DNA from: an uncultured bacterium
Lineage (GTDB): Bacteria > JAGOEH01
Direction of reading: 5' to 3'
Length of the DNA stretch: 37,016 nt
NCBI GenBank assembly: GCA_964632485.1
Contig: CAZWDO010000001.1
Coordinates: 419,631 to 456,646 of the forward strand
Below are positions 7,531 through 35,169 of the stretch, piece by piece. The notes beneath the pieces were generated by a model, which saw nothing but the letters and a program-made list of their open reading frames with translations, was not told where the DNA came from and did no database searches. Both the position numbers and the translations under genes were made by a program. The stretch's first letter is position 1; each line of letters begins with the position of its first letter.

Positions 7531-10500
7531 TTACCTCGCAGGCGCAGAACTTTTAGTAAGCTTCACCCACGGCACTAAACGATCAAGCGAAGATTGTCCC
7601 TGATGCATATAGCGTGGCTGATCCTTGCTCCGGTAATCACTTTTTTCACTAAAGCCATGATCAGCGCATAAATAAAAAGAAAAACCTGTTGGAATAGGTT
7701 GAAAAAACTGTTCCAGTCGAGAAAGGGTTTCCTGAAACAGCAAAGCGAGCTCATTTTTTTCCGTATGCAGCTTTTCATCCAGGAAACCAACAATAAATGC
7801 CCGTCGATGGTGATTTCCCATTGTATCAAGGCAACTATTCAAAAAATGCGGATAATGGTAATCGCGTTCGACTGATTTAAACAATTCTATATTTAAATCC
7901 GCCAAAACAGCATAGAAGGATTGCGTAGTTGTCGGCATGGGACTGAGCAGAAAACTTTCATATTCACAAAGCCAGTGTGGAGCCGACCAAAGCGATTCAC
8001 GCAATCTTAGATAAAAATCGATCCGCAATCCATCGATCACCAGCAAATTTATTCCGTGTTCATCGCCGACCGTTTTACGAATTTTAGTCTCAAGCTGGTT
8101 GGACGCCTGATCCCACTGCGACAACTGTTCCTGAAAAAGCGATTCAAAGGCCTGGGCTTTATCAACCCGTTGCTGCCGCTGCCAGATACTAATATCGAAA
8201 TCGATTCGTTGTGTTTTCCGATTTTCCAGGTCTAATAGTTGCAATTGCAATTCATCCCGAAAAAAAACGACAGCGTTAGCGCAAAATCGGGGAAATTGCT
8301 GCCAGGAAGTTACGGGTTTAAGCAATCGGTCATGAATATCACGCAACTGGTTCAGCCAGTCGGACAGTACGTTTCGCCCTATCAGAGCCGGTAGTTTATC
8401 CCGCCGAAGAAAAAAAGAAAAATCATTCAGCAATACCACAGCCGCCCGCATTTGTAATTGAGGGAAATTCGATGCCTGGTTTATAAAATGGATCAATGCG
8501 TCAAGTTCCGCCTGCGCAAAAAAAGTACCCTCGATAATCGACTGCAGGATTTCATTCCCCAGAAAATTTTCAAGATCAAATTCCTGCGGTAATAAATCAA
8601 ATTGCGCGTTTAATTCCACCAATTCCTTTTCCCCATGGCCAATATTGAAGGTAAGAGGACTCCAATGAGTCGGAATTTTATAACTCTGCGCAAGGGAATA
8701 AAGAAACATAATAATCAATTCTGTAAATATCTCTTCGGGCGATTGCGGTAAAGCGAGAGAACGTATATACTGCTGCAGGAAAGCAGGCAGAGGTTGGAGA
8801 CTGCCAGTGGTTTCTTCTTGCTGGCTTTGCCAGACACCCGTATCAAAAGACAAAAAAGTCTCTTCGCTCTTCTGATCAATAGATAACCAATCGTCAATCA
8901 AGCGTCGCGCCTCACTATATAGCAATTTTTTCCCGGCAATTTTAGAAATTAAAGTGGATATCTCTTTAGCAACAATAACCGTTTTATCACTCAACGCTTC
9001 ACGAATTAAAGTGATAACAGGGGGAATCAGCGTCTGTAAAAGCTCAGAAATCGCCGGAGTTTCCCGCCAATTGGAATGGATTATTTTATTTAAGAGCGAT
9101 GCCTGTTGGGTTTTACCCCAATCAACCAATCGGACCTGATAGCGAACGATTTTTTGCTGAAATTCAGGTTTTGAAAAATGGTCGATGTAGCTATGAATAC
9201 TCTCCATGAGTTTACAGCGAATCGCTTCAATTTGCTCTTCCCAATCGGAAACAGGGACAAACGATGGATTGGCCTGACAAATGCAAAAAGGCTGCCGCTC
9301 TAGTTCCCGTTCCGGATCACGGCTACAGAACTGTCCGATCAACCGTTCCGTTTGTTGGCGAATATCCTGAAAATCGGGTTGCGCCGAAATTAGTTGAATT
9401 TGATTTAATCGGTCAAGAAGTTGCCACTGGATGGTTTGCTGAAGTTGCTGCAGTGCAGCCAATCGTTCCGGAGGAAACCATTTTTGATGGGTTTCACTAT
9501 AAAGCTGCCGATATAAATTTCGAAATGATTCAAAAGATTTGAACAGGGTTTGAATCATCTGCGGAGTAACCGTTTGTTTCAGTTTTTTAAATTGGTCCGA
9601 TAACTCCTCATAATCACTTTCCAGAGGCGTATTCTGGATTACCGCAAAAATCTGAGGACAGTTCAGGTAATCGAAAATAACAACAACCTGGGGGAAATGG
9701 TCATTAACTAATTCCCGGGTTTGGTGAAACTGTGTTAAAAAAAATTCAAGCTCTTCAGGTTCCTTAATGGCCGTCAGCAGATTATCCAAACCTTGCTTAG
9801 ACGATAATCCCGGCTTGATAAGGGTAATAATTGAGGCCAATGAATACAAATGGGTTAAAACATTCAGGAAACTGGTTTCGCCGAATGGAGGGGTATGCGA
9901 CAAGGTTTTTAATTGATTGATCAACCAATTCAGAGAGGGTTCATTTTGCTGCTTGAATTCAATCAGCTTGGCCCAGGCGTTTTCCTGTCCCTTGAAATGC
10001 AGTTCAGATGGCTTTATTTTCCCAATCAGAGATTTTAATTTGTCATGTTGGCTCAAAAACAATTCTGAAACCTGCGAACCGGGAGCAATACGCCGGCATT
10101 CGCGTATTTTAGAGAGCGAAAACTCATCGCTGCGCATTGCGCGCTGCTGCAAAATCAGCTCCACATATCCGGCCTGCGCTAAAAAATAGAGGCTTAAAAT
10201 TAGTTGATGATGAGAAACCCCGAAATCAGAGAATCGGCGATTACGGTATAATTCACTATAAGACGGCGTCGAGTTTTCGATAATTTTCAATAATTCGCGT
10301 AAAAAAGGTGAATTGCCCGGATTCGGATCGATCATGAATTCCTGACCCATGCTTTTAATAAGTCCCAGTTTTTCGGTCAAATTCTTGAGCAACGTGCCAT
10401 GAGAAATAGAAGCAAGAAAAAAATGAATTCCAGTCAGATTGGTTTGTATATGATCAATCAGCTCGCCAACGGTTTCGAGAGGCGGTTCCGGTGTGGCGGA

Positions 10501-12753
10501 CTTAATTTTTTTATGATCCGGATAAAGCAGATCAAGCGCATGATAAGCCAGAAAGCGAGTCAGTGTTTTAAGGTCCACGGCTAAACGCGCCGTCTCATCA
10601 AGTACCCGGAGTTGATCGCAGGAATGGACACGGGGCGGGAAATAGGCTTTCAATATAATATCACGACATTTTTTTTTCGCTTGGTCCAGCATACGCGCGA
10701 TTTCATCATTTTGACCCTCAAAAAAAGCTGGCTGCTCTTGAACCAGTTTATTAAAAGTCAACGTCTCAGCATACCAACGGGTAATATCCTCCCGTTCCGC
10801 CGTCCCGAGAGTATCCGGCTGCCAATAGAAAACCCGGCGGATCAGTAACGGGGCATGCTCGCGCAACACGCGCCAAAGTGGATCCATGCGCTCATTATGA
10901 ACGACCGGGAATCCCAATACCAGCACCAGATCGATATCCTCATCCTCAACTCCCTGGCGCCACTGCATGGCGAGTTCCTGATTAACGCGATCAGGCATGG
11001 AAAGTTGGATGCGAATACGACGAGAACTGTCCTGCCAAAGCGCTGAAATTTGATCATATCGGTTATAAAGCGATCCCAGGGATAAAGGTTCGCCGTCAAC
11101 ACTCTGTAAAAGTTCGCTCAACGCAATATCGGAAAGATTAAGATGGCGTTGCATCAAACGCGCAACCTCTTCCTGAAAACGGTCGGCAACCGATTGAGTC
11201 ATTGTCAACTGGACAATATCTTCAAATGCGTTATCGACAGACACCCTTTTTATATAACTTGAACGGGCCGCTAATTGCTCAATTAAATACTGAATAAAGG
11301 CTAAATTGGCCCCGGGATCAACCGGATCGATACCCTGGCCCAAAATTTCTGCAATCGCGCGGATGGTGAGTTTGGGAAGATTGAGACTGATCTCCGTCAG
11401 GATAAGCAACCGGACGAGATCAAGCGCTGCCTCTCGCTCTTCCGGCTCGGTGAAAACCCGGGGAACAGTATATTGATAGTCCCGCCAGACATGATCGATA
11501 TAGCGATGAGTTTGGCGGTTTTCCTGAATTTTGTCGCTAAAAGCGGTAAAGATGGCGGCAGGAGTCAATAAACGATCAGCGGGTTGTTCCAATAACGGCA
11601 AATTTCCGGCCTCGCCATGCAAGGCCTGGTGGAAAAATTCGATCATCCCACGCGTTTTGGAAAAAAGATTAGTCAGGCTCTCCAGATAATAGAGAGTGCT
11701 GGGGTGAATCGGATAGATTTCCAGAAACTCAGGAAATGAAATATTCCAGGATGGAAAATATGAGCGGAACTGTTCAAACACATCGTGGATAACGGATTCA
11801 GCGCCAGGCAATTTTATAACTAAACGCTGAGAAAAAATAGCGCGGATATGAACGACTGAAAGCTGGATACGTCGGTGATACCGATCACGGATTTTATGCA
11901 AGGCCATTTCCGATGCCCGGGTCGTTTCCTCGATCTCTTCCTGCATACTTAAAATAACCCGACAATGGAACGGCAAATTCCATTCTCCCAGAAATTGAAG
12001 GAACCGAATGTCTTCACTGCTATTGTCCTGCTGGGAACGGGAACGCAGGAACTCGGAGGTTTCATCCAGCAGCAGTACGAGTCCTGCAGGGAAATGGGTA
12101 CGAATCAATTCATCGAGGGACAGAAAAAAATCCCGGCGTGAAAAAAAGGGCGCAAAAGGAATTTTCTTCTGTTCCAAAAACTCCATCAAGGCGTTTACAA
12201 AATTTTCCGTTGGAGATGACGCAATTTTTTGCTCATACTCTTCAACCAACGCAGAGGAAAAGGAGATGCGGAACTGTTCCAAAATATGTTCCTGCCACGA
12301 CGAAGGAAAAGAAACCCGCAATCGTTGGAATTCCCGCTGAATGGCGTCAAGGATCGCATTTTCCAAAGAAACCTGCGCCGAATAATTCATCAGCGGAATG
12401 CCGACCGTTAGCAATTTCCCGCTGGGAAAGGCCTGATATCGATCAAGTTGGGGATAATTTCGTCGCAGTTCGGCGAAAAATTCCGGGTATCTGCATACTC
12501 CCCCCAAATACGCCAGAAAATGACTTTTGCCGGAACCGTAACCCCCTTTGAGAATAAATCCTGCGCTCTTCCCTTCGTTGAATACTTGTAGAAAAAGCTC
12601 TAATCCGGCAAAGACCTCATCAGTCAAAACAAAACTATTGACGATTTGAGACTTTAAATCATCAGGCGCCGCCGCCATCGCCTCCTGCAAGCGGATAACA
12701 GTCTGGATAGCAGGCGCGCTGATCAACTGACCGATCTTGGGAAATTGCTTCAT
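7531..12753 (-). CDS. 1740-aa BrxC/DUF6079-like P-loop ATPase fused to a C-terminal PglZ-like alkaline-phosphatase-fold domain
   Basis: Walker A GGYGSGKS (aa 70-77), Walker B LVLLLDE (D230), KIRDRY and YPIHP (aa 347). C-terminal IDGLR (D1574), SPMPTTT, LDEKLH, ADHGF and HQGQS..LVP motifs. Confidence 0.8.
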   Translation of the reverse strand: MKQFPKIGQLISAPAIQTVIRLQEAMAAAPDDLKSQIVNSFVLTDEVFAGLELFLQVFNEGKSAGFILKGGYGSGKSHFLAYLGGVCRYPEFFAELRRNYPQLDRYQAFPSGKLLTVGIPLMNYSAQVSLENAILDAIQREFQRLRVSFPSSWQEHILEQFRISFSSALVEEYEQKIASSPTENFVNALMEFLEQKKIPFAPFFSRRDFFLSLDELIRTHFPAGLVLLLDETSEFLRSRSQQDNSSEDIRFLQFLGEWNLPFHCRVILSMQEEIEETTRASEMALHKIRDRYHRRIQLSVVHIRAIFSQRLVIKLPGAESVIHDVFEQFRSYFPSWNISFPEFLEIYPIHPSTLYYLESLTNLFSKTRGMIEFFHQALHGEAGNLPLLEQPADRLLTPAAIFTAFSDKIQENRQTHRYIDHVWRDYQYTVPRVFTEPEEREAALDLVRLLILTEISLNLPKLTIRAIAEILGQGIDPVDPGANLAFIQYLIEQLAARSSYIKRVSVDNAFEDIVQLTMTQSVADRFQEEVARLMQRHLNLSDIALSELLQSVDGEPLSLGSLYNRYDQISALWQDSSRRIRIQLSMPDRVNQELAMQWRQGVEDEDIDLVLVLGFPVVHNERMDPLWRVLREHAPLLIRRVFYWQPDTLGTAEREDITRWYAETLTFNKLVQEQPAFFEGQNDEIARMLDQAKKKCRDIILKAYFPPRVHSCDQLRVLDETARLAVDLKTLTRFLAYHALDLLYPDHKKIKSATPEPPLETVGELIDHIQTNLTGIHFFLASISHGTLLKNLTEKLGLIKSMGQEFMIDPNPGNSPFLRELLKIIENSTPSYSELYRNRRFSDFGVSHHQLILSLYFLAQAGYVELILQQRAMRSDEFSLSKIRECRRIAPGSQVSELFLSQHDKLKSLIGKIKPSELHFKGQENAWAKLIEFKQQNEPSLNWLINQLKTLSHTPPFGETSFLNVLTHLYSLASIITLIKPGLSSKQGLDNLLTAIKEPEELEFFLTQFHQTRELVNDHFPQVVVIFDYLNCPQIFAVIQNTPLESDYEELSDQFKKLKQTVTPQMIQTLFKSFESFRNLYRQLYSETHQKWFPPERLAALQQLQQTIQWQLLDRLNQIQLISAQPDFQDIRQQTERLIGQFCSRDPERELERQPFCICQANPSFVPVSDWEEQIEAIRCKLMESIHSYIDHFSKPEFQQKIVRYQVRLVDWGKTQQASLLNKIIHSNWRETPAISELLQTLIPPVITLIREALSDKTVIVAKEISTLISKIAGKKLLYSEARRLIDDWLSIDQKSEETFLSFDTGVWQSQQEETTGSLQPLPAFLQQYIRSLALPQSPEEIFTELIIMFLYSLAQSYKIPTHWSPLTFNIGHGEKELVELNAQFDLLPQEFDLENFLGNEILQSIIEGTFFAQAELDALIHFINQASNFPQLQMRAAVVLLNDFSFFLRRDKLPALIGRNVLSDWLNQLRDIHDRLLKPVTSWQQFPRFCANAVVFFRDELQLQLLDLENRKTQRIDFDISIWQRQQRVDKAQAFESLFQEQLSQWDQASNQLETKIRKTVGDEHGINLLVIDGLRIDFYLRLRESLWSAPHWLCEYESFLLSPMPTTTQSFYAVLADLNIELFKSVERDYHYPHFLNSCLDTMGNHHRRAFIVGFLDEKLHTEKNELALLFQETLSRLEQFFQPIPTGFSFYLCADHGFSEKSDYRSKDQPRYMHQGQSSLDRLVPWVKLTKSSAPAR

Positions 12754-13790
12754 AGCGCCTCAGTCTCTTCCGCGCTTGAATTGGCTCCTTCTTCATCGTC
12801 TTTGATACTTTTGGACAAAGGCTGAACCGGCAGGGAGGTCTGCAGCTTACGAATTGTTCCCCAAAGTCGGTTATATACCGGTGAGCGGTTGATCAATTCT
12901 TTGAGATGCTCAATCACTTCCAATTGGCGGTGGCATTGCGCCGCGCTCTTGGACACCATATTTAAAAATGGATTGTTCAGATAGTTGCGATCAGGCAGTT
13001 CCAGAAACAACTGCAATGCCGGGGAATACCTGCCCCATTTGTAATAGACCCAGGCTAAGCGGTTTTTCAAATATTCCGAGGAGTCAAGTTGCAATGCCTG
13101 CAATAAATAGCGCTCAGCTTTCTCCCAGTTTTTTTCCGCGATAAACTGTTCGGCCAGATTTTTACAGGTTTCGCCATCGGCAATCTGCCCGGAATATTTC
13201 AGACTTTTTTCCCAATTAACCGCGCTCACTCCTTTTTCTTCCATAAGATAGCGTTTTTTTTGGGCCATATAAAAAGAGCTTTCCGGGTTCAAAAGCAGAG
13301 CCGCATCGAGACATGCCAGGGCTTGCTCACGATTTTCCAGTTTCTTATAAATCTGAAATCCGAGGTAACGCAATTCATGGCGGTCCGAAATCGCTTGCCG
13401 CGCTTTTTCAAAATAAAAGGCCGCATTCTCCAGTTGACCGATTTTATTCAACAGACGGGCCAATTGCCAGCAGACTTGCGGGTCGTCGCTTTGATGGTAA
13501 ATATCCATCAGCAAATCAACCGCTTTTTTATAATCCTGCTTGACTTCGAATAAATAGGCTTTTCGCGCCAGATAGTAGGTATTATGCGGCTCATTTAATA
13601 AAAGTCGCGCTAAAATCCGTTCAGCCGGTTCCAAATTGCCTTGATGCAGATAGTAATCCATTTCAATTGACAAGACCATAGGATGATTGGGATCCTGTGA
13701 AGAAAGCTGGGTAATCAGAGTATTGGCTTCTTCATATTTTTTCTGGTGGAGCAGATGCCGGGCTAAACGTATCTGTTCAGATAATTGCAT
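12750..13790 (-). CDS. Tetratricopeptide-repeat protein
   Basis: Repeated helical TPR-like units (KYEEANTLI, NLEPAERILARLLLNEPHN, QLENAAFYFEKA, NWEKAERYLLQALQLD). No signal peptide. Its stop overlaps the next ATG (ATGA at 12753-12750). Confidence 0.88.
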   Translation of the reverse strand: MQLSEQIRLARHLLHQKKYEEANTLITQLSSQDPNHPMVLSIEMDYYLHQGNLEPAERILARLLLNEPHNTYYLARKAYLFEVKQDYKKAVDLLMDIYHQSDDPQVCWQLARLLNKIGQLENAAFYFEKARQAISDRHELRYLGFQIYKKLENREQALACLDAALLLNPESSFYMAQKKRYLMEEKGVSAVNWEKSLKYSGQIADGETCKNLAEQFIAEKNWEKAERYLLQALQLDSSEYLKNRLAWVYYKWGRYSPALQLFLELPDRNYLNNPFLNMVSKSAAQCHRQLEVIEHLKELINRSPVYNRLWGTIRKLQTSLPVQPLSKSIKDDEEGANSSAEETEAL

Positions 13791-13881: not shown

Positions 13882-14865
13882 TCATACTTTGGCGCGGGCA
13901 ATAATCACAATATTTTGAGTAAAAATTGAATCCCGATGAAATTTTAAAAGAAATTCCAGTTTAGCCAGCCAATAAAAAAGGCGACGGATGATGATATGCT
14001 TCGGGTCCAGTCCAAACGGAGTGGGATACTGGAAGTAATGACCAACATAATGATGCCAGACAGGCAATTGGATAGGGGGCGCAATATGACGTGCCAACAC
14101 GTTGAATCCATTTTTTTCCAACATTTGGGCTAATGACTTGAAACTATAGTGCACGACATGTTCATACGAATCAAAAAGATCATACTGCCCGGTTTTTTTT
14201 AGTAATCTGGCCAGCTTTAGTTTCAATAAACTAAACTTGCCATTTGGCACCTTGATGAAGAGAATACCATCCGTTTTGAGCAGGTTCCGCGCGGCGGCCA
14301 GCAGTTCACTTGGATTGGGAATATGTTCGAACACATCAGTCATAGTGATAATATCGATCGAGTGAAGTGGAATATTGGCTTTCTCCAGAAACGTATTGAT
14401 AATTTCCAGATGGAAATATTCCTTTGCCAGTTTTGAGAGCGTGGGCGAGGGTTCAACCCCCAACGTATCGAAACCGGCTTTACTGGCATGCCGCAGGAAA
14501 AACCCCATACTTGAACCGACATCCACGAATTTACCGGTGGTTTTGATTTTCTTGATCAAACCGATATCATGCAGATAATTCGGGTCCCGATGATGTCCTT
14601 TTTTCCCTAAAAAAATCAACCGGGCTTCTTCAAAATATTTTTCACTGTCGCCCCAATAAACCTGTTCCGGATTTTTCAAGCGAGGGTTAGTAAAAACCAA
14701 TCCACAACTTTTACATCGGCTAATACCCAGATGTCCGCGCTCACGATAAATCAAATCGCTCTGATCATGGCTACAGAGAGGACATGCGACCTGATCTACA
14801 TCCTGCTCCGTGTAAAAATCCTTTTGGGTACCGCCATGCACGTAATCCTGGGTACTGATTTGCAT
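13882..14865 (-). CDS. Class I SAM-dependent methyltransferase with an N-terminal Zn-ribbon
   Basis: CPLC...CKSCG, VDVGSSMG, GVEPS, DVFEHIPNP and LFIKVPN motifs. Confidence 0.88.
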   Translation of the reverse strand: MQISTQDYVHGGTQKDFYTEQDVDQVACPLCSHDQSDLIYRERGHLGISRCKSCGLVFTNPRLKNPEQVYWGDSEKYFEEARLIFLGKKGHHRDPNYLHDIGLIKKIKTTGKFVDVGSSMGFFLRHASKAGFDTLGVEPSPTLSKLAKEYFHLEIINTFLEKANIPLHSIDIITMTDVFEHIPNPSELLAAARNLLKTDGILFIKVPNGKFSLLKLKLARLLKKTGQYDLFDSYEHVVHYSFKSLAQMLEKNGFNVLARHIAPPIQLPVWHHYVGHYFQYPTPFGLDPKHIIIRRLFYWLAKLEFLLKFHRDSIFTQNIVIIARAKV

Positions 14866-14890: not shown

Positions 14891-16990
14891 TTAACGAACA
14901 ACAGTAAACGATAAAGAGGACTTCGGGGAACCATCCAGAATTTTTAAAATATATCGGCCAGAGGGAAGCTCCTGAACATTCACTGAAGTTCGAGCCGAAT
15001 AACAGACACCATGAGAACAAACCCGTCCCAGCAGGTCAAAAATTTTGTAATGAACTGGCGACTGGGCCCCGCGAGATGTATGTAGAGTAAACCTTCCGTG
15101 ATTGGGGTTGGGATAAAGTCCCGCCAAAAGAGTTTCGGACAATGCGTAAGTCACAGAAATCGCAGAGACTGAAAAATCGTGCCGGGCCAGTAACCCGCCC
15201 TCACCACAAATCCAAAGGCATTCATTCAGCTCCACTAAGGAAGTTACAGCCGATGGGGCTTGCTCGGACCAAACCATCTGATCTTGCGAGCTCGAACAAC
15301 GGCAGACAAAACCGTTTTCAGTGGCCAGACAAATATCTCCCGACCGGGTAGAGGCCACTGCCTGAATATCACTGTTATCACTGGTCCTAAAAATAGTATC
15401 AACACGAGTAAACCCGGGAATTAACGAAACCAGGAATTTCCCGGCGGCGGCATAAAGAGTTCCATCATCAGCAACGGTTGCGGCCAGGATCGGTGAGGTT
15501 GCGGAAAATTCGAGCGCAGCAGCGGAATCATTCTCCTGATAGCGCCATATTACGCCGTTACCCGTCGTCTCATCTTTCCCCCAGGTATAAAACGTATCAT
15601 TGCGTATCATGCCTCCCAGAAGCATATAGTTACCAGACAAAATATCCGAACGGTCCTGCCAGGAATAGCCTCCATCATGAGTATATAGCAGCGAATCACC
15701 GATCAGCCAACCGGTCGCGCTGTCGGCAAAAACAAATCCCTTCCAGGTAACGGAAAATGGATTATTAAAATAATTCCAATTTTCGCCGTTATCTTCACTT
15801 AAATAAATGCGTTTACCAGCGCTTCCGATTCCGAGTATTCGACCCGTTGATGGAAAGGCCAGATTGCAGGGAGTAAACGGCGTTGGGTGGTAGCAACAAT
15901 TATGATCAGTGAGGGTATAGGAAAGATAGATCCCGGTAGTGGCATTGCTAAGTACTACACATTCCGGAGTAGCTGAAAGACCTGTGAAACTGAAATCCTC
16001 AGCGTTCGGCGTCAGGAGTTGTGTGGCATTGGAAGAATGGCTTGCCATCATACCCCAATCGCCCGCGCCAATCAACGATCCATCGGGAAGAGTGGCGAAA
16101 GCATTGAGAGCAAAAGCGGTAGTATCCAACAAGGACCAACTTACACCCCCATCCCGGGTTGCCATTAGGGCAGGTTGGACGGGAGATCGGGTCTTACCGG
16201 TTGCCCAACCCGATAAGGAATCAGTGAAACTAAACCGGTTGGGACGAAGATTATCCTGAGCAGGAGCGTAGATCATCGCCCAGGTCATCCCGCTATCCTC
16301 GCTTCTCCAGAGCGAATCGCAACCGGAACCCGTTAAAAGTCCCAGCCATCCCCGTTCATGATAAAAAAAAAGGTCGGCATTCGTATAAGTGGTTTTTAAG
16401 GATTGCCAGCATAGCGTCCAGGTTGTCCCGCTATCAGTCGTCGAGAACAAATAAAAAAAATTGGTTACCAAATTTTTACCGCAAATAATTCCCCGTTCGC
16501 TGCTCCACCAGTGCTGCGCATAAAAACGGAACACCCCGTCTTGTTCTCCGGGGGCTGGAAGCCCATACCAACTAATTCCTCCGTCGCGGGTCATCATGAT
16601 CGTATCGCCGATTGCGACGGCGGTCAGACTGTCAATCGCAATAATATCCTTCCAATATTGCGTCGAGCCCTGGTGGTCAAAACTCGTCCAAAGAGTTCCA
16701 CCATCTGAGGAGCTATAGAGTTCATCATCCTGGTAACGGATAGCGAAAAGTCGGGTACCGCTTGAGAAGAGCCGGAAAAATTTCAGCGAATTAACAAATT
16801 CAAAATGGTTATTACCGGGATTGTAGGAATAGAGATGGTCTGCAGCGATCAAAAGACGCTGGTTAACCAATTTCAAATCTTCAATATCACCATAAATCTC
16901 CGCTCGTCGAAGAATTTCCCACCCTGAGATTATTCCTGGTAAAAACAAAATTATGCAGTAAATAGAAAGATGTAGCACTCTAATCATCAT
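14891..16990 (-). CDS. Secreted BNR/YCF48-like beta-propeller protein with a T9SS (Por) C-terminal sorting domain
   Basis: Signal peptide; many (S/T)xDxGx(T/S)W Asp-boxes; C-terminal YPNP...IFDLLGR...LPSGRYILKI. Confidence 0.85.
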   Translation of the reverse strand: MMIRVLHLSIYCIILFLPGIISGWEILRRAEIYGDIEDLKLVNQRLLIAADHLYSYNPGNNHFEFVNSLKFFRLFSSGTRLFAIRYQDDELYSSSDGGTLWTSFDHQGSTQYWKDIIAIDSLTAVAIGDTIMMTRDGGISWYGLPAPGEQDGVFRFYAQHWWSSERGIICGKNLVTNFFYLFSTTDSGTTWTLCWQSLKTTYTNADLFFYHERGWLGLLTGSGCDSLWRSEDSGMTWAMIYAPAQDNLRPNRFSFTDSLSGWATGKTRSPVQPALMATRDGGVSWSLLDTTAFALNAFATLPDGSLIGAGDWGMMASHSSNATQLLTPNAEDFSFTGLSATPECVVLSNATTGIYLSYTLTDHNCCYHPTPFTPCNLAFPSTGRILGIGSAGKRIYLSEDNGENWNYFNNPFSVTWKGFVFADSATGWLIGDSLLYTHDGGYSWQDRSDILSGNYMLLGGMIRNDTFYTWGKDETTGNGVIWRYQENDSAAALEFSATSPILAATVADDGTLYAAAGKFLVSLIPGFTRVDTIFRTSDNSDIQAVASTRSGDICLATENGFVCRCSSSQDQMVWSEQAPSAVTSLVELNECLWICGEGGLLARHDFSVSAISVTYALSETLLAGLYPNPNHGRFTLHTSRGAQSPVHYKIFDLLGRVCSHGVCYSARTSVNVQELPSGRYILKILDGSPKSSLSFTVVR

Positions 16991-18593: not shown

Positions 18594-19703
18594 TTACGCA
18601 AAAGGATCGAAGAAAATGCGATCATTGGAAATACCATTTTTATTAAGTACAGCCATACAAGCTTTGACCATACCGGGACTACCGCAAAGATACCCCTGGG
18701 CTTGCGTCATATTGCGCTTACTAATATGGCGGTGCACGACATCGGTAATCAGGCCGGTTTCCCCTTTCCATTCTTCTTCAGCAGTGGGAGCAGAAAGCGC
18801 GGGAATGAAACGGAAATTTGGCGCTTGTCGTTGCAGTTCATTCATCTCATCGAGATAAAAAAGATCCTTAGTCGTGCGGGCCCCAAAGAAGAAAGTAGCT
18901 GGACGGGGATTTTGAGTTTGGACCATATCATGCAACAGAGAAACCATCGGCGCCATACCGGACCCCCCGGCGATCATGATAATTTCTCCCTCAGCGGGTC
19001 GCATGAAGAAATCACCCATCGGTCCGATGAAGGACACTTCATCACCTTCGCGCAAATGGCGATGCGCCCAAGTCGTGCAAATACCGTCAGGCACCTGTCG
19101 AATCATCAATTCAATATAATTTGGGGTAAATGACGGAGAACAAATTGAATAGGCGCGAATCACACTTTCTTTGACATCGCCATAAGGCTTGCTCTCCAGT
19201 TGTACATATTGCCCGGCCTTAAAATGGATCTGTTCGTTACTGCCAAGTCTTAACTGCAACAGTTTTATATCATAGGTCAGGTCTTTTAAAATAGCGACTC
19301 GGGCGCGAAATTGCCGGATATTAAAGAGTTCATCAGGGATTTCCATCATCATATTTCGCTTGAGCTTGACCTGGCAAGCCAATCTGATCTGGTTTTGCCG
19401 TTCTGTTTCACCCAGCAACGGTTCTTCAGTGGGTAAAAGATTCCCAGCTCCTTCGGTAATTTTGCATTTACAGTAGCCGCAGGTACCGCGTCCACCGCAA
19501 GCGGAGGGTAAATAAATTCCCTGGCTTTTCAATGTGGATAACAGGCTGCTACCCCCCTTGAGGGTTAATTTTTTTTCCTGGTTAATCGTAATCTCATAAT
19601 CCCCATAATTTGCGAAAATGCGCTCGGCCAGCGCCAGGATCAAAGCCAGCAATCCATTCAATCCGACCATCGCAGCGACCGTGATGAGTATATTCTGCAG
19701 CAT
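18594..19703 (-). CDS. nqrF: NqrF-like NADH-oxidising subunit (N-terminal TM, 2Fe-2S, FAD and NAD domains)
   Basis: CGGRGTCGYC...RLACQ, RAYS, AGGSGMAP, YLCG and C-terminal FDPF; last gene of the nqr-like operon. Confidence 0.85.
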   Translation of the reverse strand: MLQNILITVAAMVGLNGLLALILALAERIFANYGDYEITINQEKKLTLKGGSSLLSTLKSQGIYLPSACGGRGTCGYCKCKITEGAGNLLPTEEPLLGETERQNQIRLACQVKLKRNMMMEIPDELFNIRQFRARVAILKDLTYDIKLLQLRLGSNEQIHFKAGQYVQLESKPYGDVKESVIRAYSICSPSFTPNYIELMIRQVPDGICTTWAHRHLREGDEVSFIGPMGDFFMRPAEGEIIMIAGGSGMAPMVSLLHDMVQTQNPRPATFFFGARTTKDLFYLDEMNELQRQAPNFRFIPALSAPTAEEEWKGETGLITDVVHRHISKRNMTQAQGYLCGSPGMVKACMAVLNKNGISNDRIFFDPFA

Positions 19704-19723
19704 GTTGAATGTCCTTTCAATGA

Positions 19724-20314
19724 TTACTGGATTTGAACGATACCGGAGAAGCCGACAAAAGCGATAGCCATCAACCCGGAGATAATCAGCGTGATGCCGG
19801 GTCCACGCAACGCTTCAGGAACACGGCTCTCATTCATCCGTTGGCGAATACCAGCCAGGGCCAGAATGGCTAACAGCCAGCCCAAGCCACTGCCCGCGCC
19901 AAACAAAACGGATTGCAGAAAATTGTACTGCCGGATCACCATAAAAAGCGCCGCGCCAAAAATCGCGCAATTAACGGTGACCAACGGAAGAAAAATTCCC
20001 AACGTTATATATAAACCTTCCGAATAACGTTCGATAATCATTTCCAGCACCTGGACCACGGCGGCAATCACCACGATAAAAGCTACATACCACATATACT
20101 CAATACCCAGCGGCACAAGTAGATAATAATAGACCATATAATTGATGGCATTCGTGATGGTCATGACAAACGTAACCGCCATGCCCAATCCGGCGGCGGT
20201 TTTAACCTGCCGCGAAACTGATAGAAAAGAGCACATGCCCAAAAAATTACTGAGCAGGATATTGCTGGTGAAAATGGAAGCAAAGAAAATAACAAGCGGT
20301 GAGAGATTAGCCAT
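19724..20314 (-). CDS. nqrE: NqrE/RnfA-family membrane subunit
   Basis: FLGMC, LGIFLPLVTVNCAI, ALAGIRQR and GLMAIAFVGFSG motifs. Confidence 0.88.
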   Translation of the reverse strand: MANLSPLVIFFASIFTSNILLSNFLGMCSFLSVSRQVKTAAGLGMAVTFVMTITNAINYMVYYYLLVPLGIEYMWYVAFIVVIAAVVQVLEMIIERYSEGLYITLGIFLPLVTVNCAIFGAALFMVIRQYNFLQSVLFGAGSGLGWLLAILALAGIRQRMNESRVPEALRGPGITLIISGLMAIAFVGFSGIVQIQ

Positions 20315-20326
20315 AATTTTTACCTC

Positions 20327-20959
20327 CTATTTCACTTTTTTAGCGCTGAGGTTATTTGCCACCCAGATAAAAGAAGCGAGCATAAAAAATCCGCCCGGCG
20401 CCATGATCATAATTGCCCAGGAAACCCAGCCTTCACTATAACCCAGCGCTTTAAACAGCGGGTCTAAAAACGGGTACCCGAATACCGTGCCAAATCCCAG
20501 CAGTTCCCGAATGAAAGCGATAACCAACAGAATCCAGGAGTAGCCGATTCCCGACATAATACCGTCTATCAACGCCGGAATCGGTTTGTTGGCAGATGAA
20601 AAGGCTTCCAGACGCCCCATTACGATACAATTGGTGATAATCAAGCCCACATAGGGACCTAAAGCCCGGCTGATATTGGGGACATACGCTTTGAGGAAAA
20701 TATCAACAATGATGACGTAGCCGGCAATGATCAGGGTTTGAGTGATCATACGGACCCGGGGAGGAATCATATTGCGAATCAACGAGACCGTAAGCGCTGA
20801 CAGTCCGGTAGTAAACACAAGTCCGATTCCCATAATAAATGTATTAATAAAAAGGTTAGTTACCGCTAATGTCGAACAGATACCCAGAATCTGCACGGTT
20901 ACCGGATTTTCTTTCCAGAGATCATCCCGGACGATCTCTCCGATATTTTTAGTTTTCAT
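20327..20959 (-). CDS. nqrD: NqrD/RnfE-family membrane subunit
   Basis: NPVTVQILGICSTLAVT, YVGLIITNCIVMGRLEAF and RELLGFG motifs. Confidence 0.9.
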   Translation of the reverse strand: MKTKNIGEIVRDDLWKENPVTVQILGICSTLAVTNLFINTFIMGIGLVFTTGLSALTVSLIRNMIPPRVRMITQTLIIAGYVIIVDIFLKAYVPNISRALGPYVGLIITNCIVMGRLEAFSSANKPIPALIDGIMSGIGYSWILLVIAFIRELLGFGTVFGYPFLDPLFKALGYSEGWVSWAIMIMAPGGFFMLASFIWVANNLSAKKVK

Positions 20960-21708
20960 GGTTCCACTCCCGGGTTGACTATTTGACTAAGCCAATGAAC
21001 ATAAAAATGAATATCAAGGTTAACCATATCCAACACACCTTTCGAGGTCATACTGGCGCCGGTGATGGCTTCAATATCGGATGTGGGAGTTTCCAGATTA
21101 CGTGTGGTTTTTTTACTAACTAAACGGACCGCATGAGAGTTGTTGGATAAAGAACTAATATCCAATCCGCGGAAATGCCGTTTGAACCATTCTTCCATGA
21201 TGCGAGCGCCTAATCCCGGAGTTTCGCTTTGATGAATAAAATCGATCCCGACCATCCGCTGGAAATCCGGCGCAATCACACCGAATGCCTGGATGGATCC
21301 CCATAAGCCTTTTCCATATAGTAAAATGCCATAGCCGATCAGATTGCCGACGCTGTCGCGTCCGATATAAACCGGGATAGAATCGTTCCAGGGTAACATG
21401 GTTCCATCCAATCCCTGTCGATCCTTTGAAGTGAGCGCATAGGTTTTCAACTGAATATGCGTGTTGAAGCTTTGAAGTACCTGATCTTCCCGCCATGGTA
21501 AATCAGCGGTTCCAATACCAGGCGCCAGGGAATTTCCGTCAATCCCGGGTGGTAACAAATTAAACCCATACAATACCGACTGATAAAATTCTATTTTTTG
21601 ATTAAGCTCAATCCGTTCCCGTGTGGTTTCATTTAATATGGCCAACGCCGTTATGAAAACGGTTGAAATGATCAGCATAAATAGTATCATTGAAATTGCT
21701 TTTTTCAT
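20956..21708 (-). CDS. nqrC: NqrC/RnfG-family FMN-binding subunit
   Basis: N-terminal TM, GKGLWG, ETPGLG and the flavinylation-type motif EAITGASMTS. Confidence 0.87.
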   Translation of the reverse strand: MKKAISMILFMLIISTVFITALAILNETTRERIELNQKIEFYQSVLYGFNLLPPGIDGNSLAPGIGTADLPWREDQVLQSFNTHIQLKTYALTSKDRQGLDGTMLPWNDSIPVYIGRDSVGNLIGYGILLYGKGLWGSIQAFGVIAPDFQRMVGIDFIHQSETPGLGARIMEEWFKRHFRGLDISSLSNNSHAVRLVSKKTTRNLETPTSDIEAITGASMTSKGVLDMVNLDIHFYVHWLSQIVNPGVEP

Positions 21709-21718
21709 CGTCCCTCCT

Positions 21719-22687
21719 CTAAGCCTTCTTAAATATCAGATCGATGATGGGATTGAACATGTTCCCCAGGAGAATCGCGAACATCATTCCTTCGGGAAAA
21801 AGCGAAAACGATCGGATGATGATAGTGAAAAAAGCGACAAGAAAACCGTAAATCCACTGGCCGGAATCAGTTTTCGCCGCGGAAACCGGATCGGTGAGCA
21901 TATAGAAAGCCCCCAGGATAATACCACCGGAAAGCAGTCCGTAAAGCAAATCCGGAGTTTTAAGGGGGAAAAGCGCATGGAAGATCGGCTGCATGACCAG
22001 AAACGACGTAAAAAAACTCAGAACAATTCGCCAATTGGAAATTTTTTTAAAAAGCAGCCACCCCCCACCCAAGATCAAAAGCAGAGCTGAAGTCTCGCCA
22101 ATACAGCCGCCGCCGATCGGCAGCGTTTCTCCAAGTTTGACTACCGTTCCATTAATATTGCCAAAAAGAAGTTTATAATAAGGAAGTTGGATCGATAGCC
22201 CGTCCCTGAATATGGAGAGCGGAGTGGCGCTGGTCAGGGCGTCGAATTGATAGCGCCAGGCAGCCAATCCAGCGGGAAACTGAGTAAAATCAGCCGCGCT
22301 GGTCCAATGCGCCGTCATTTGGGTCGGAAAAGCGATATAGATAAAAGCCCGTCCCGCAAGGGCCGGATTGAAAATATTAAAGCCGAATCCGCCAAAAGCC
22401 ATCTTGGCGAAAATGACGGCAAAAATGCAGCCGACGGTAACAATCCATAACGGAATAGACGGGGGAAGAGTCATAGCAAATAAAGTAGCGGTCACCCATA
22501 CCGCTTCGGACACTTTGGCTGTTTTTTTAGAACGGACAAACAACCATTCTGTTATCGTACACGTAATCATCGAAGTCAACCACACAACCAGAGTGTACCA
22601 GCCATAAAAAAAAATACCGGCAACGATGGCCGGTATTAAACTATATACAACCTGCCGCATGACGGGTTGTTTTTGAAACTGTATCAT
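21719..22687 (-). CDS. nqrB: NqrB/RnfD-family membrane subunit
   Basis: KMAFGGFGFNIFNPAL, DALTSATPL (FMN site), GCIGETS, MLTDPVS and PEGMMFAILLGN motifs; AAGGAGG RBS. Confidence 0.88.
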   Translation of the reverse strand: MIQFQKQPVMRQVVYSLIPAIVAGIFFYGWYTLVVWLTSMITCTITEWLFVRSKKTAKVSEAVWVTATLFAMTLPPSIPLWIVTVGCIFAVIFAKMAFGGFGFNIFNPALAGRAFIYIAFPTQMTAHWTSAADFTQFPAGLAAWRYQFDALTSATPLSIFRDGLSIQLPYYKLLFGNINGTVVKLGETLPIGGGCIGETSALLLILGGGWLLFKKISNWRIVLSFFTSFLVMQPIFHALFPLKTPDLLYGLLSGGIILGAFYMLTDPVSAAKTDSGQWIYGFLVAFFTIIIRSFSLFPEGMMFAILLGNMFNPIIDLIFKKA

Positions 22688-22998: not shown

Positions 22999-23574
22999 TC
23001 AATAATTCTCTTCCATTAATTCGAAAAACGACTGAGGGTGAAGACATGCCGGACAGGTTTTCGGCGCCTCGCCGCCCTCGGCAGTATAACCGCAATTGCG
23101 GCATTTCCAAACCATCGGTTTTTCTTTTTTGAAGACCATACCCTTTTCAATGTTATCAACCAATTTATTGTATCGGTTCTCATGCGCTACTTCGACCAAC
23201 GCAATCATTCGAAAAGCGGCGGCAATTTCTTTGAATCCTTCATTTTCAGCGATTTGAGCGAACTCGGGATATAAAACCGTGTGTTCATGGTGTTCTCCAG
23301 CCGCCGCTGCTTTCAGGTTCTCCAGGGTCGTCCCGATCATGCCAGCGGGGTAAGCCGCTGTAATTTCAACATCCCCGCCCTCAAGAAACTTGAAAAAGCG
23401 CTTGGCATGTTCTTTTTCATTCTCCGCCGTTTCCTGAAAAATAGCGCAAATCTGCTCGTAACCTTCTTTTTTAGCTTGTGAAGCAAAATAATTATAACGA
23501 TTTCGAGCTTGAGACTCGCCCGCAAAGGAAGCTAGTAAATTTTTTTCTGTTTGAGTTCCTTTTAAACTCGGCAT
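22999..23574 (-). CDS. rbr: Rubrerythrin
   Basis: FAGESQARNRY, ENEKEHA, EVAHE and C-terminal WKCRNCG...CPACLHP. Confidence 0.96.
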   Translation of the reverse strand: MPSLKGTQTEKNLLASFAGESQARNRYNYFASQAKKEGYEQICAIFQETAENEKEHAKRFFKFLEGGDVEITAAYPAGMIGTTLENLKAAAAGEHHEHTVLYPEFAQIAENEGFKEIAAAFRMIALVEVAHENRYNKLVDNIEKGMVFKKEKPMVWKCRNCGYTAEGGEAPKTCPACLHPQSFFELMEENY

Positions 23575-27873: not shown

Positions 27874-27882
27874 TCTATTTCG

Positions 27883-31583: not shown

Positions 31584-31766
31584 ATTTTTCCTTTAATTAT
31601 TATATGTAGTCCATCATTACCGCTTGACAATTTATTACCCGAGAATTGACGTGTCCTTGTTCATACAGCTATCATCCATTTTCTGATAACGATTGCCGGA
31701 ACAATTATAAACCAATATCTCGAATTGCTCAGTTCATCCACAGGTACAAGAACCTATTGGATTCTA

Positions 31767-32333: not shown

Positions 32334-32348
32334 AAAACCTCCATAAGA

Positions 32349-33656: not shown

Positions 33657-33720
33657 GGCTTCTCCTTTCTTAGGTATCATGCGGGTTGAAACCTGCGGCG
33701 TTGCTGTTGGATTTGCTATT

Positions 33721-33876: not shown

Positions 33877-33886
33877 CTTTCCCCAG

Positions 33887-35158: not shown

Positions 35159-35169
35159 GGTCTTCCCTT

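Follow-up and report, generated by a model that had tools for sequence, protein, structure and literature searches.

A Gene Pair Encoding a TPR Protein and a BrxC–PglZ Fusion, Related to the BREX Core, in an Uncultured Bacterium

Introduction

BREX loci carry a DNA-modifying enzyme, either a PglX/PglXI methyltransferase or, in type 4, a PAPS reductase, and the gene list of type 3 BREX is brxF, brxC, pglXI, brxH, pglZ and brxA. The PglZ domain of PorX, a response regulator of type IX secretion, hydrolyses cyclic and linear oligonucleotides. How BREX stops phages is unresolved, including the trigger of PglZ and the action of BrxC on DNA. Published work places BrxB:BrxC:PglZ at the BREX core, with PglZ as a nuclease (PMC13326643, PMC12205998). 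In this type 1 core, studied in Acinetobacter and E. fergusonii (PDB 9zn5, 9zll, 9zdx and 9nv3), ATP regulates both the self-association of BrxC and its binding to DNA, and BrxB connects the AAA+ domain of BrxC to PglZ (PMC13326643), and PglZ is a DNA nuclease that also cleaves cyclic and linear oligonucleotides (PMC12205998). In the abstract of Rakesh and Krishnan 2026 (PMC12839542), BrxA-like and BrxB-like (inactive STAND) components are reported as universal in BREX; the same source describes type 3 BR, composed of a DUF499 ATPase, PglZ and iSTAND, and a HerA/FtsK-centred capture system composed of PglZ, DUF6079, STAND, DUF4007, HerA, GNAT and TGT.

The locus analyzed here lies in a stretch of 37,016 nucleotides from an uncultured bacterium (hereafter the window) and encodes the same two enzymes as the type 1 core, its BrxC part being homologous end to end. 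As in type 1 BREX, the Y-x3-Y-x3-H motif and the Cys triad common to proteobacterial BrxC, as well as the metal and nucleophile residues of PglZ, are kept. Unlike type 1 BREX, the two enzymes are in one polypeptide with PglZ C-terminal to BrxC, the module has a dedicated TPR partner instead of BrxB, BrxA, PglX and BrxL, and its PglZ, of about 170 residues, lacks the N-terminal BrxB-binding and other domains. With the type 3 BREX found on contig C19 of the same genome the fusion shares the DUF6079 kind of BrxC and the best PADLOC model, but that system has six separate genes, including those for a DNA methyltransferase and a helicase, and its BrxC has no Cys triad. Among solved structures, PorX (8ted, 8tfm, 7pv7) comes closest to the C-terminal domain in both profile and fold, and the match takes in the helical segment ahead of the PglZ core; unlike the fusion, it has a receiver domain, acts in signalling and contains neither an ATPase nor a DNA-binding scaffold. 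The systems described in PMC12839542 likewise combine a BrxC-like ATPase with PglZ outside canonical BREX, PglZ being reduced in some of them, but consist of three to seven separate genes in which PglZ and the ATPase are encoded apart. In the main text of that paper (supplementary tables not covered) the terms TPR, tetratricopeptide, BrxC-PglZ and PglZ-BrxC did not occur, and no description of the TPR and BrxC–PglZ fusion arrangement was found in the literature searched.

The pair offers biochemistry and cryo-EM a natural minimal subject: BrxC and PglZ share a chain, the single partner is small, and methyltransferase, helicase and protease are all missing. The fusion fixes the stoichiometry and geometry of ATPase and nuclease, and the module separates the core's own action from what methylation adds, so that it could help to explain how the BREX core works.

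Results and Discussion

Structure of the Gene Pair

The first-pass annotation of the window had described a 1740-aa single ORF coupled through an ATGA overlap to a 346-aa TPR ORF. Both ORFs and the overlap were verified in the sequence (Table 1), the 4-base overlap being read directly on the minus strand as ...gcgctATGAagcaa... The ATPase motifs named there, GGYGSGKS, LLLDE, KIRDRY (residues 287–292) and YPIHP (residues 347–351), were all present, as was the C-terminal PglZ-type motif set. The locus almost certainly represents a self-contained two-gene module, in which a cytoplasmic TPR protein is predicted to be translated along with one polypeptide composed of a complete BrxC-type AAA+ ATPase and DNA-binding scaffold, a helical connector and a minimal PglZ core, by homology a metal-dependent phosphodiesterase/nuclease.

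Table 1. Positions in the window of the two genes and of the features of their products.
Feature	Positions	Strand	Basis or remark
BrxC–PglZ fusion gene	7531..12753	(−)	1740 aa + stop, uninterrupted ORF
TPR partner gene	12750..13790	(−)	346 aa; Pfam TPR matches, upstream orthologues in other phyla
ATGA overlap	12750..12753	(−)	TGA stop of TPR gene shares bases with ATG start of fusion gene
Complete BrxC/DUF6079-homologous body, residues 5–1228	9070..12741	(−)	hhalign
Predicted AAA+ ATPase module, ~residues 1–450	11404..12753	(−)	Pfam DUF6079, PADLOC BrxC, PDB BrxC chains; invariant R291 of KIRDRY
Walker A GGYGSGKS, residues 70–77 (K76)	12523..12546	(−)	Motif and conservation
Walker B LLLDE, residues 227–231 (D230, E231)	12061..12075	(−)	Motif and conservation
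Y-x3-Y-x3-H (Y1081, Y1085, H1089) and Cys triad C1143-x13-C1157-x-C1159	9277..9513	(−)	Near end of BrxC body; candidate metal site
Family-specific connector, mostly helical, residues 1229–1564	8062..9069	(−)	No BrxC counterpart in hhalign
Predicted compact PglZ/alkaline-phosphatase-fold catalytic core, residues 1565–1735	7549..8061	(−)	Profile, AF2 model, Foldseek, conservation
PglZ-core residues D1574, R1577, D1579, P1607-T1608-x-T1610, D1659, H1663, D1698-H1699-G1700, H1717			

The BrxC Part

Comparison by hhalign of the fusion family (40 rows) with canonical BrxC (15 rows) aligned fusion residues 5–1228 with residues 1–1163 of the 1165 of BrxC (probability 100%, E 1.5e-51), and in relatives the DUF6079 profile was covered up to position 1236 of 1238. 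The BrxC/DUF6079 homology that had been placed at about residues 1–450 is thus present, but its extent had been set too small, since the whole of BrxC is covered. The N-terminus passed Pfam DUF6079 (3.9e-34, 117.8 bits against a cut-off of 23) and matched PADLOC BrxC (4e-25, best model PDLC02482) and the BrxC chains 9zn5_A, 9zll_A and 9zdx_C of the PDB (E 1e-13 to 2e-11). The NCBIfam equivalog cut-offs were not reached (BREX_BrxC, 46.3 against 400 bits; PglY, 19.4 against 1700 bits), and the fusion is therefore considered a distant branch and not an equivalog of the named BREX proteins.

In the family alignment, the Walker A residues G70, G73, S74, G75, K76 and S77 were each conserved in 41/41 sequences, and the same was found for D230 and E231 of Walker B and for R291. 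As judged from the sequence, the N-terminus has what defines an AAA+ ATPase of the ORC/Cdc6 type, namely Walker A and B motifs and a conserved Arg, and the multidomain BrxC body of about 1200 aa (wHTH, alpha+beta domain and C-terminal helical region) is predicted to be present behind it. Residues Y1085, H1089, C1143, C1157 and C1159 were also invariant (41/41 each) and align in canonical BrxC with Y-x3-Y-x3-H and C-x14-C-x2-C; 13/15 of the canonical sequences have these Cys residues. This invariant Y/H/Cys3 cluster, which canonical BrxC shares, suggests an element with a structural role and possibly a bound metal; metal binding is inferred and not shown. The cluster goes unmentioned in two BrxC papers, the words "zinc" and "cysteine" each occurring 0 times in PMC13326643.

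The Connector and the PglZ Core

The connector was modelled by AlphaFold as helices at low to medium confidence, with pLDDT < 50 around model residues 178–226. BrxC-only relatives stop near residue 1305.

For the C-terminus, the single-sequence evidence was poor: Pfam PglZ (PF08665) searched against the last 240 residues remained below its gathering score (E 0.24, 11.8 against 25 bits), and a PF08665 search of the own genome left the fusion gene of the window unmatched at E ≤ 1. The case for PglZ is accordingly built on the family profile and the fold. The profile A2 (37 rows) matched in the PDB both PorX (8ted_A, 2.7e-11; 7pv7_D, 2.1e-7) and BREX PglZ (9nv3_C, 1.4e-7; 9zn5_B, 9.8e-4). In the AF2 model the core shows six strands alternating with helices at pLDDT of about 85–95, and in a Foldseek search with this model ranks 1–15 among the matches listed were all PorX (best 1.3e-8), followed by BREX PglZ 9zn5_B (7.2e-6) and then by YejM, ENPP6, NPP, EptC and MCR-1 of the alkaline-phosphatase superfamily. 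The C-terminal PglZ/alkaline-phosphatase fold proposed by the first-pass annotation is supported by both approaches.

Conservation within the core was 40/41 for D1574, 39/41 for T1610, 38/41 each for D1659, H1663, D1698 and H1699, and 37/41 for H1717. With few exceptions, the rows shown have T or S in the T1608 column, which aligns with the catalytic Thr of PorX, of which the mutants T271V and T272A are named in PDB titles. By these alignments the metal-binding Asp/His set and a Thr/Ser nucleophile are kept in the putative PglZ core, from which activity is inferred. The core is much smaller than BREX PglZ and lacks its BrxB-binding N-terminus, and its substrate could therefore differ. The HGG motif reads HQG in the protein of the window; G is found at that position in 35/41 sequences.

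The TPR Partner

The TPR protein matched TPR_19 (7.3e-19) and TPR_2 (1.3e-13), with TPR_14, TPR_1 and TPR_8 also above the Pfam cut-offs; no hydrophobic N-terminal signal was visible in its translation, and PADLOC gave no match to it. Orthologues of about 311–386 aa align over their full length and, in other phyla, immediately precede the fusion gene. By BLAST clustering, a cluster of about 334-aa TPR proteins was found in 43/58 loci, 45 of its 46 members being upstream (median gap, 0.5 bp); apart from it, no neighbour cluster occurred in more than 8/58 loci. In a six-frame search with a family HMM, an orthologous TPR gene was detected in 47/52 loci and lay within 300 bp of the fusion start codon in 39/52, only loci with at least 1100 bp of upstream DNA being counted. 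The HMM is circular for the 42 loci of its source cluster, five loci being newly added. The linkage, on which the first-pass interpretation depended, is conserved in homologues to this extent.

Two BrxC-only relatives (L024 and L041), which have neither connector nor PglZ, keep the TPR gene, and the TPR docking site is therefore placed within the BrxC body. Modelling of the TPR protein with the ATPase had been proposed as a check of the first-pass annotation. An interaction was predicted with fusion residues 1–600 at a score of 0.54, against 0.00 for the best control, with a contact agreement between runs of at least 89% and a partner pLDDT of at least 81. The mark used was reached by 58/80 solved complexes and 2/110 mismatched pairs; at a score of 0.60 or less, however, it was reached by only 7 of the 80 solved complexes and by both passing mismatches. 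The predicted docking of the TPR protein on the N-terminal ATPase third thus has weak support only, from one chosen fragment.

Genomic Context

The pair is flanked, as had been described, by an SDF/DAACS transporter (Pfam, 7.6e-105) and a class I methyltransferase of the Methyltransf_23 family (6.3e-23); Nqr, rubrerythrin and sugar-nucleotide genes are also present in the window, and no mobile-element genes were found in it. Among 28 of its ORFs scanned with Pfam (five unmatched) there was no DNA N6/N4 methylase, BrxA/B/F/H/L-type protein or integrase, in agreement with the earlier reading, and the matches to NF033452 in this genome are on other contigs. Across related loci, the small-molecule methyltransferase of the window gave one weak match (3.4e-6). 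A DNA methylase was absent from the 25 most frequent Pfam families of 146 flanking ORFs, no family occurring in more than three of them; PADLOC gave at most 3/146 per family, with no BrxA or BrxB family recurrent among the neighbours. Most of these flanking genes have housekeeping functions (aldolase, cyclophilin, threonine synthase, aspartokinase, transporters).

The claim that no methyltransferase accompanies the module held for the window and, as a recurrent neighbour, for related loci, but PADLOC identified a complete type 3 BREX (BrxF, BrxC, PglXI, BrxHI-type helicase, PglZ and BrxA) on contig C19. A second DUF6079/BrxC was absent (E ≤ 1e-8) from 33/36 other carrier genomes, which are MAGs of unknown completeness. 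Homologues were thus not found inside complete BREX loci, a placement that would have marked the locus as a remnant, since no neighbour but the TPR gene recurs. BrxC and PglZ are encoded together, as in BREX, but fused in one ORF; the DNA-modifying enzyme and the BrxA-like and BrxB-like components of BREX are missing from the locus as far as its sequence allows them to be recognized.

A total of 209 representative relatives was obtained at E ≤ 1e-3, most of them 1500–2000 aa long; of 149 relatives listed, 79 have at least 1500 aa, and 70 of those 79 contain the PglZ motif pair. Identity between phyla was 21–25%. The family is carried by 1/3 genomes of the phylum of the window and, in another order, by 23/72 species genomes, with 36–63% identity among matches covering most of the query. 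When phylum labels were mapped on the protein tree (FastTree; kin share labels, long-branch joins flagged), 15 changes were required, the minimum being 12 and the shuffled mean 22.2, and in 0/200 shuffles were as few obtained. By tblastn no match was found in 72,556 plasmids or 50,697 phages, and none of 17 BrxC relatives on IMG/VR viral contigs reaches past query residue 450. Because of the housekeeping neighbours, the tree that tracks taxonomy and the absence from the viral and plasmid sets, the family fits poorly to a classical mobile defence island, and the context data lean somewhat away from one. A few relatives are broken, the PglZ part of L043 being interrupted by a frame break and L048 being fragmented.

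Proposed Function and Alternatives

The sequence data establish the anatomy of the module, intact catalytic residues in both putative enzymes, conservation of the pair across many phyla and the lack of a linked methyltransferase or other BREX gene. By analogy with type 1 BREX, the BrxC part would bind DNA and assemble under the control of ATP, and the covalently tethered PglZ core would nick or cut the bound DNA; with such a tether a BrxB bridge would be unnecessary. The TPR protein would dock on the N-terminal ATPase third and control assembly or activation, in a role analogous to that of BrxB or BrxA. The sensor or adaptor function of the TPR protein and the defence or domesticated role put forward in the first-pass annotation are likewise inferences. 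Since there is no modification enzyme, the choice of target cannot rest on an epigenetic mark; either the TPR protein would have to sense a trigger, or the BrxC domains would have to recognise features of the DNA. We regard the restriction of invading DNA, by a methylation-independent BREX relative that is rather stably inherited, as the most likely role; it is an analogy for which there are no experimental data on the family, and we give it, together with the mechanism, an even chance. A further-reaching proposal is possible, although we consider it doubtful: an autonomous BREX core without an epigenetic mark, in which BrxC–PglZ, switched by a TPR partner that replaces BrxB/BrxA at the ATPase, would recognise and nick a DNA target, and which would long have been kept as a lineage-stable chromosomal pair in many, mostly uncultured, phyla. 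If this is true, the pair stands either for a kind of immunity that does not depend on methylation or for the cellular activity that was recruited to give BREX.

The same housekeeping neighbours and location outside a defence island, the taxonomy-following tree, the persistence in blocks of related genomes (as in the order with 23/72) and the lack of plasmid, phage and viral-contig copies would also suit a domesticated, non-immune factor of chromosome maintenance. Its DNA-binding scaffold, driven by ATP and with a nickase tethered to it, would then serve DNA processing, repair or the restart of replication, and the pair would be passed on vertically within some lineages and have disappeared from others. 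A non-immune pair would be an example of the BREX core put to cellular use. We think this explanation rather unlikely, though not to be set aside, because the patchy occurrence among kin in both groups surveyed is unusual for core maintenance, the low identity between phyla indicates fast evolution like that of conflict genes, and BrxC is not known outside BREX-type conflict systems. The better sequence and fold matches to PorX than to BREX PglZ, the reduction of the domain to its catalytic core and the cleavage of cyclic and linear oligonucleotides by type 1 PglZ, stated in a section heading of PMC12205998, raise another possibility: the PglZ core may act on nucleotides and not on DNA, and the module would then be a phosphodiesterase, gated by ATP and DNA, through which a signal is produced or removed. 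This is improbable in our judgement, as the core shares its chain with a full BrxC DNA-binding scaffold, there is no linked gene for a cyclase or an effector, and BREX PglZ is described as a DNA nuclease (PMC12205998).

The resident type 3 BREX, whose BrxC also matches PDLC02482, leaves room for the fusion to be an accessory effector acting in trans and borrowing PglXI for self/non-self marking. The two loci are, however, on different contigs, the resident BrxC is similar only over residues 6–360 (22% identity), and most other carrier genomes have no second BrxC, so that such a role appears very improbable here and is already disfavoured as a general rule. There remains the suspicion, raised with the first-pass annotation, that the fusion is a misassembly. 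It might likewise be two genes read through as one, or what is left of a decaying BREX. Apart from the few broken relatives, no evidence for any of these was found, and we regard all of them as practically excluded. The frame is open over 1740 codons and the catalytic residues are conserved. Contigs from an independent 2012 marine sample cover positions 7649–10556 with 163 substitutions and 0 gaps, and also positions 12254–12832, so that both the BrxC/PglZ and the TPR/fusion gene junctions are bridged without indels, and the same architecture is found in relatives from dozens of independent assemblies of many bacterial phyla.

Gene Pair and Genomic Surroundings

The analysis supported the structural reading of the first-pass annotation, and the pair formed by the 346-aa TPR gene and the 1740-aa gene downstream of it (the fusion) is a minimal core derived from BREX and accompanied by a TPR partner, which is widespread but rare and whose function is untested. 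Both ORFs (see table) were found as annotated, with the TGA stop of the TPR gene sharing bases with the ATG of the fusion (minus strand ...gcgctATGAagcaa...), and all motifs that had been named were present in the fusion translation: GGYGSGKS (residues 70-77), LLLDE, KIRDRY, YPIHP, DGLR at 1574 and DHG at 1698. Several TPR models of Pfam matched the small upstream protein. The neighbouring genes, previously called a DAACS transporter and a small-molecule methyltransferase, were assigned by Pfam to SDF/DAACS transporters and to Methyltransf_23 enzymes of class I, respectively.

Pfam annotation of 28 window ORFs showed, inter alia, a lamin-tail-domain protein, an Nqr/Rnf operon, a rubrerythrin, a class A beta-lactamase-like protein, a sugar-nucleotide cluster and a C11 peptidase. 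No DNA methylase, other BREX gene or integrase was detected among these 28 ORFs, and the earlier statement that the window lacks a pglX-type methyltransferase, further BREX genes and an integrase was thus upheld. The GC content across the locus was unremarkable.

Coordinates of the features of the window, of the BREX and PglZ loci elsewhere in its genome (G000) and of two broken copies in related loci
Feature	Location	Strand	Remarks
Fusion ORF	window 7531-12753	-	uninterrupted, 1740 codons
Y/H/Cys signature of fusion	window 9277-9513	-	residues 1081-1159
TPR ORF	window 12750-13790	-	346 codons, same strand as fusion ORF
Class I methyltransferase	window 13882-14865		Methyltransf_23/UbiG-like
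Neighbour gene	window 14891-16990		bears T9SS sorting domain
Nqr/Rnf-type respiratory operon	window 18594-22687		NqrB/RnfD-like, FMN-binding, two Rnf-Nqr membrane subunits, ferredoxin-reductase subunit with 2Fe-2S domain
Rubrerythrin	window 22999-23574		comes after Nqr/Rnf-type operon
Sugar-nucleotide/surface-polysaccharide-type cluster	window 25896-35595		NAD epimerase, C-methyltransferase with Zn-binding domain, dTDP-sugar isomerase, nucleotidyl transferase; adjoins C11 clostripain-like peptidase, DUF4330 protein and small SxtJ-like protein
Type 3 BREX	locus L010 (contig C19 38000-57999), 5332-17515	one strand	genes overlap or abut: BrxF 168 aa, DUF6079 BrxC 1224 aa, PglXI methyltransferase 883 aa, BrxHI-type SNF2 helicase 933 aa, PglZ 612 aa, BrxA 254 aa
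Third PglZ-domain gene of G000	locus L001, contig C4 93573-94166	-	524-aa open frame, PF08665 9.8e-16
Separate PglZ end of broken copy	locus L043, 14856-15182		108-aa frame, overlaps 1637-aa ORF
Two pieces of broken copy	locus L048, 4507-6741 / 9848-11518	opposite strands	556-aa N-terminal piece and 744-aa piece (matches residues 877-1215)

A misassembly, which would have refuted the reading of the fusion as one polypeptide, was rejected on the basis of contigs carrying a variant of the fusion locus in two runs (X2, X3) of an independent 2012 marine sample. Over the 2908 bases of 7649-10556, which lead from the BrxC body across the connector and into the PglZ core, one contig differed by 163 substitutions without any gap or indel, and another covered 12254-12832, across the junction of the TPR gene and the fusion.

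The BrxC Part of the Fusion

The N-terminus of the fusion passed the Pfam DUF6079 model (117.8 bits, cut-off 23), matched the PADLOC BrxC model (4e-25) and was far under the NCBIfam BrxC/PglY equivalog cut-offs, which places the fusion on a distant branch. In a profile-profile comparison of 40 family members with 15 canonical BrxC proteins (14 from fetched loci and the BrxC of G000 itself), residues 5-1228 aligned to canonical positions 1-1163 of 1165 with a probability of 100% (E 1.5e-51); hence an entire BrxC is present, beyond the ATPase alone. Residues Y1085, H1089, C1143, C1157 and C1159 were invariant in 41/41 full-length relatives and aligned with a Y-x3-Y-x3-H + C-x14-C-x2-C signature carried by 13 of the 15 canonical proteins. 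This cluster could be a metal site, metal binding being inferred only; the BrxC papers examined contain no discussion of it.

The PglZ Part and the Connector

With the single fusion sequence, the Pfam PglZ model gave a non-significant match (E 0.24), too weak to serve as sole proof, and profile and fold tests were used instead. An alignment of 37 rows (A2), comprising residues 1300-1740 and their counterparts in relatives, matched in the PDB PorX (E 2.7e-11) and the BREX PglZ structures 9nv3_C (1.4e-7) and 9zn5_B (9.8e-4). The AlphaFold2 model of residues 1300-1740 had a mean pLDDT of 76.5, rising to ~85-95 over the last 170 residues, which were modelled as six strands alternating with helices. 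When this model was compared with the PDB using Foldseek, ranks 1-15 among the matches listed were all PorX (best E 1.3e-8), followed by the BREX PglZ 9zn5_B (7.2e-6) and then by YejM, ENPP6, NPP, EptC and MCR-1 of the alkaline-phosphatase superfamily. The PglZ assignment of the C-terminus made from motifs was therefore borne out by both profile and fold. Residues D1574, T1610, D1659, H1663, D1698, H1699 and H1717 were conserved in 37-40 of 41 relatives, and T1608 aligned with the threonine of PorX to which the mutants T271V and T272A of PDB titles refer. T1608 and H1717 correspond to T538 and H741 of the PglZ studied in PMC12205998.

The C-terminus of the fusion is a minimal PglZ core. BREX PglZ, as described in PMC12205998 and PMC12839542, has an N-terminal BrxB-binding part and other domains, whereas the core of the fusion is devoid of them. 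Residues 1229-1564 are a family-specific, mostly helical connector.

Distribution of the Family and Linkage to the TPR Gene

A HMMER search with residues 541-1740 against 1.84 billion representative proteins gave 209 proteins at E ≤ 1e-3, 33 of them at ≤ 1e-30. Among the 149 listed relatives (query excluded), 79 had at least 1500 aa, with the PglZ motif pair in 70 of these, and 21 had 1300-1499 aa. In 17 of the latter no DHG motif was present in the last 120 residues; most of these ended near the position of residue 1305 and so represent BrxC-only forms.

From a one-genome-per-species scan, which gave at least 418 relatives among at least 600 pattern matches, the best 80 loci were retained, and 58 of them contained a family member above 140 bits. 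These 58 loci span Spirochaetota, Bacillota (mainly Halanaerobiales), Thermodesulfobacteriota, Acidobacteriota, Calditrichota, Fidelibacterota, Cloacimonadota, Nitrospirota, Actinomycetota, Dormibacterota, Vulcanimicrobiota and others. One locus, L062 (the unpublished genome G076), is counted in the 58 loci, the 41 conservation rows, the 37 rows of A2 (and thereby contributed to the PDB profile matches, the AlphaFold2 model and its Foldseek comparison) and the 36 carrier genomes and supplied 3 of the 146 flanking ORFs; it was excluded from the tree and from the BrxC profile-profile comparison, and no conclusion rests on it.

BLAST clustering of the ORFs within 8 kb revealed a TPR protein of ~334 aa in 43/58 loci, its members being located upstream (45/46), on the same strand (39/46) and at a median gap of 0.5 bp; the next most frequent neighbour cluster occurred in just 8/58 loci. 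With a family HMM applied to six-frame translations, the TPR gene was found in 47 of the 52 loci having at least 1100 bp upstream. The HMM had been built from 42 cluster loci and is circular for these, the other 5 of the 47 being new. In 39/52 loci the gene lay within 300 bp of the fusion start codon (33 same strand, 6 divergent). The TPR protein of the window was matched over its full length in related loci, e.g., residues 2-317, indicating an orthologous partner rather than any TPR protein. The TPR linkage, whose absence in homologues would have refuted the first-pass annotation, is conserved. The family HMM did not detect the TPR gene in five of the 52 loci (L033, L034, L039, L055 and L060).

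Several loci depart from the common arrangement. BrxC-only relatives of 1335-1382 aa, ending at the start of the connector of the fusion, were found in L033, L035, L039, L024 and L041. In the first three of these the TPR gene is missing; a 223-aa gene overlaps the start instead, and a 207-aa gene lies just downstream on the opposite strand. In L024 and L041 the TPR gene is retained. A shorter fusion of ~1400-1440 aa is present in L064, L065, L067, L068 and L090, and the contig end truncates those of L042 and L059; all seven loci have the TPR gene divergent, on the opposite strand, and not translationally coupled. The copies in L043 and L048 are broken, which could be due to real decay or to assembly errors.

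Relation to BREX Loci and to a Modification Enzyme

Had the homologues always been located within complete BREX loci, the pair would have been a remnant. This is not so: the TPR gene is its sole recurrent neighbour, and DUF6079 (E ≤ 1e-8) was confined to the fusion gene in 33 of 36 carrier genomes, which are MAGs of unknown completeness. A second DUF6079 match was found in the other three, as a 1237-aa frame in G066 and as fragments in G059 and G075. The closest ORFs flanking the pair, up to two per side, were collected (182 in total), and the 146 of 90-800 aa were kept. No Pfam family occurred in more than 3 of these 146, the commonest being aldolase, cyclophilin, PLP enzymes and PIN; DNA methylases, integrases and transposases were absent from the 25 commonest Pfam families listed for them, and no PADLOC family recurred in more than 3/146. 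The class I methyltransferase of the window was considered as the missing modification enzyme and rejected, since it is of a small-molecule type and gave one weak match (3.4e-6) in related loci; it is no conserved neighbour of the pair there.

The pair might alternatively act in trans with a resident type 3 BREX. The genome of the window is one of the exceptions, having a complete type 3 BREX on contig C19 with a BrxC that matched DUF6079 at 892 bits; as a general rule, trans-action was rejected on account of the 33/36 carrier genomes without a second DUF6079 match. The resident BrxC resembles the fusion over the ATPase only (22% identity) and, unlike the fusion, has no Cys triad, which argues that the fusion is no recent product of the resident system. 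A third PglZ-domain gene of this genome, on contig C4, is of a size that suggests a type IX secretion response regulator of the PorX type.

Proposed Mode of Action

According to the literature, type 1 PglZ uses metal ions to nick and linearise DNA, and its activity is inhibited by ATP and lost upon T538A replacement (PMC12205998), self-association and DNA binding of BrxC are controlled by ATP, and BrxB joins the BrxC AAA+ domain to the PglZ N-terminus, competing with BrxC-BrxC contacts (PMC13326643). A covalent tether between BrxC and PglZ would account for the loss of both BrxB and the PglZ N-terminus, and the TPR protein is the sole candidate regulator of the fusion. DNA binding, cleavage and TPR control by the pair are all inferred by analogy.

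For a predicted complex of the TPR protein and residues 1-600 the score was 0.54 (best control 0.00), the runs agreeing in at least 89% of contacts, with a partner pLDDT of at least 81. The mark applied was passed by 58/80 solved complexes and by 2/110 mismatched pairs; at scores of 0.60 or lower, it was passed by just 7 of the 80 solved complexes and by both of the mismatches that passed at all. The model thus lends only weak support to docking of the TPR protein on residues 1-600. A putative docking site within the BrxC body agrees with the retention of the TPR gene in L024 and L041, which have neither connector nor PglZ.

Defence or Another Role

The components of the pair point to conflict systems, whereas its genomic context points elsewhere, and whether it is a defence system is uncertain. 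Its neighbours, in the window and in related loci, are housekeeping genes. In a FastTree phylogeny of 45 rows (L062 omitted) covering residues 1-1300, 15 phylum-label changes were required, as compared with a minimum of 12 and a shuffled mean of 22.2, and none of 200 shuffles was as low. Shared labels among kin and the flagging of some long-branch joins limit this result to a hint, from sequences, that descent of the family may have been mainly vertical. No tblastn match to residues 541-1740 was obtained in plasmid and phage collections, which is weak evidence, since a single query at 22-30% identity is insensitive and cultured hosts dominate these collections. A search of IMG/VR viral contigs with another family alignment (A1) gave 17 BrxC relatives, none matching past residue 450 and hence none of the fusion type.

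The distribution is patchy: the fusion was present in 2/41 genomes of the "relatives" set (the window's own counted), in 1/3 genomes of the window's phylum and in 23/72 species genomes of the order to which genome G054 belongs, there in runs of adjacent list rows. We read the pair as an accessory module inherited rather stably, its role being open. No paper on a pair of TPR and BrxC-PglZ proteins was found in the full-text literature, subscription journals not being covered; two preprints refer to PglZ merely incidentally or within a reference. The main text of PMC12839542 contains no occurrence of TPR, tetratricopeptide, BrxC-PglZ or PglZ-BrxC, and its supplementary locus tables may hold such fusions.

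The pair is absent from G001 and G002, the only genomes of the same family and the same order, respectively; in both, the transporter and the methyltransferase that flank the pair have orthologues, which lie on different contigs. The lineage of the source organism is very sparsely sampled and has type IX secretion markers, its phylum being represented by just 3 GTDB species genomes and its family by just 2.
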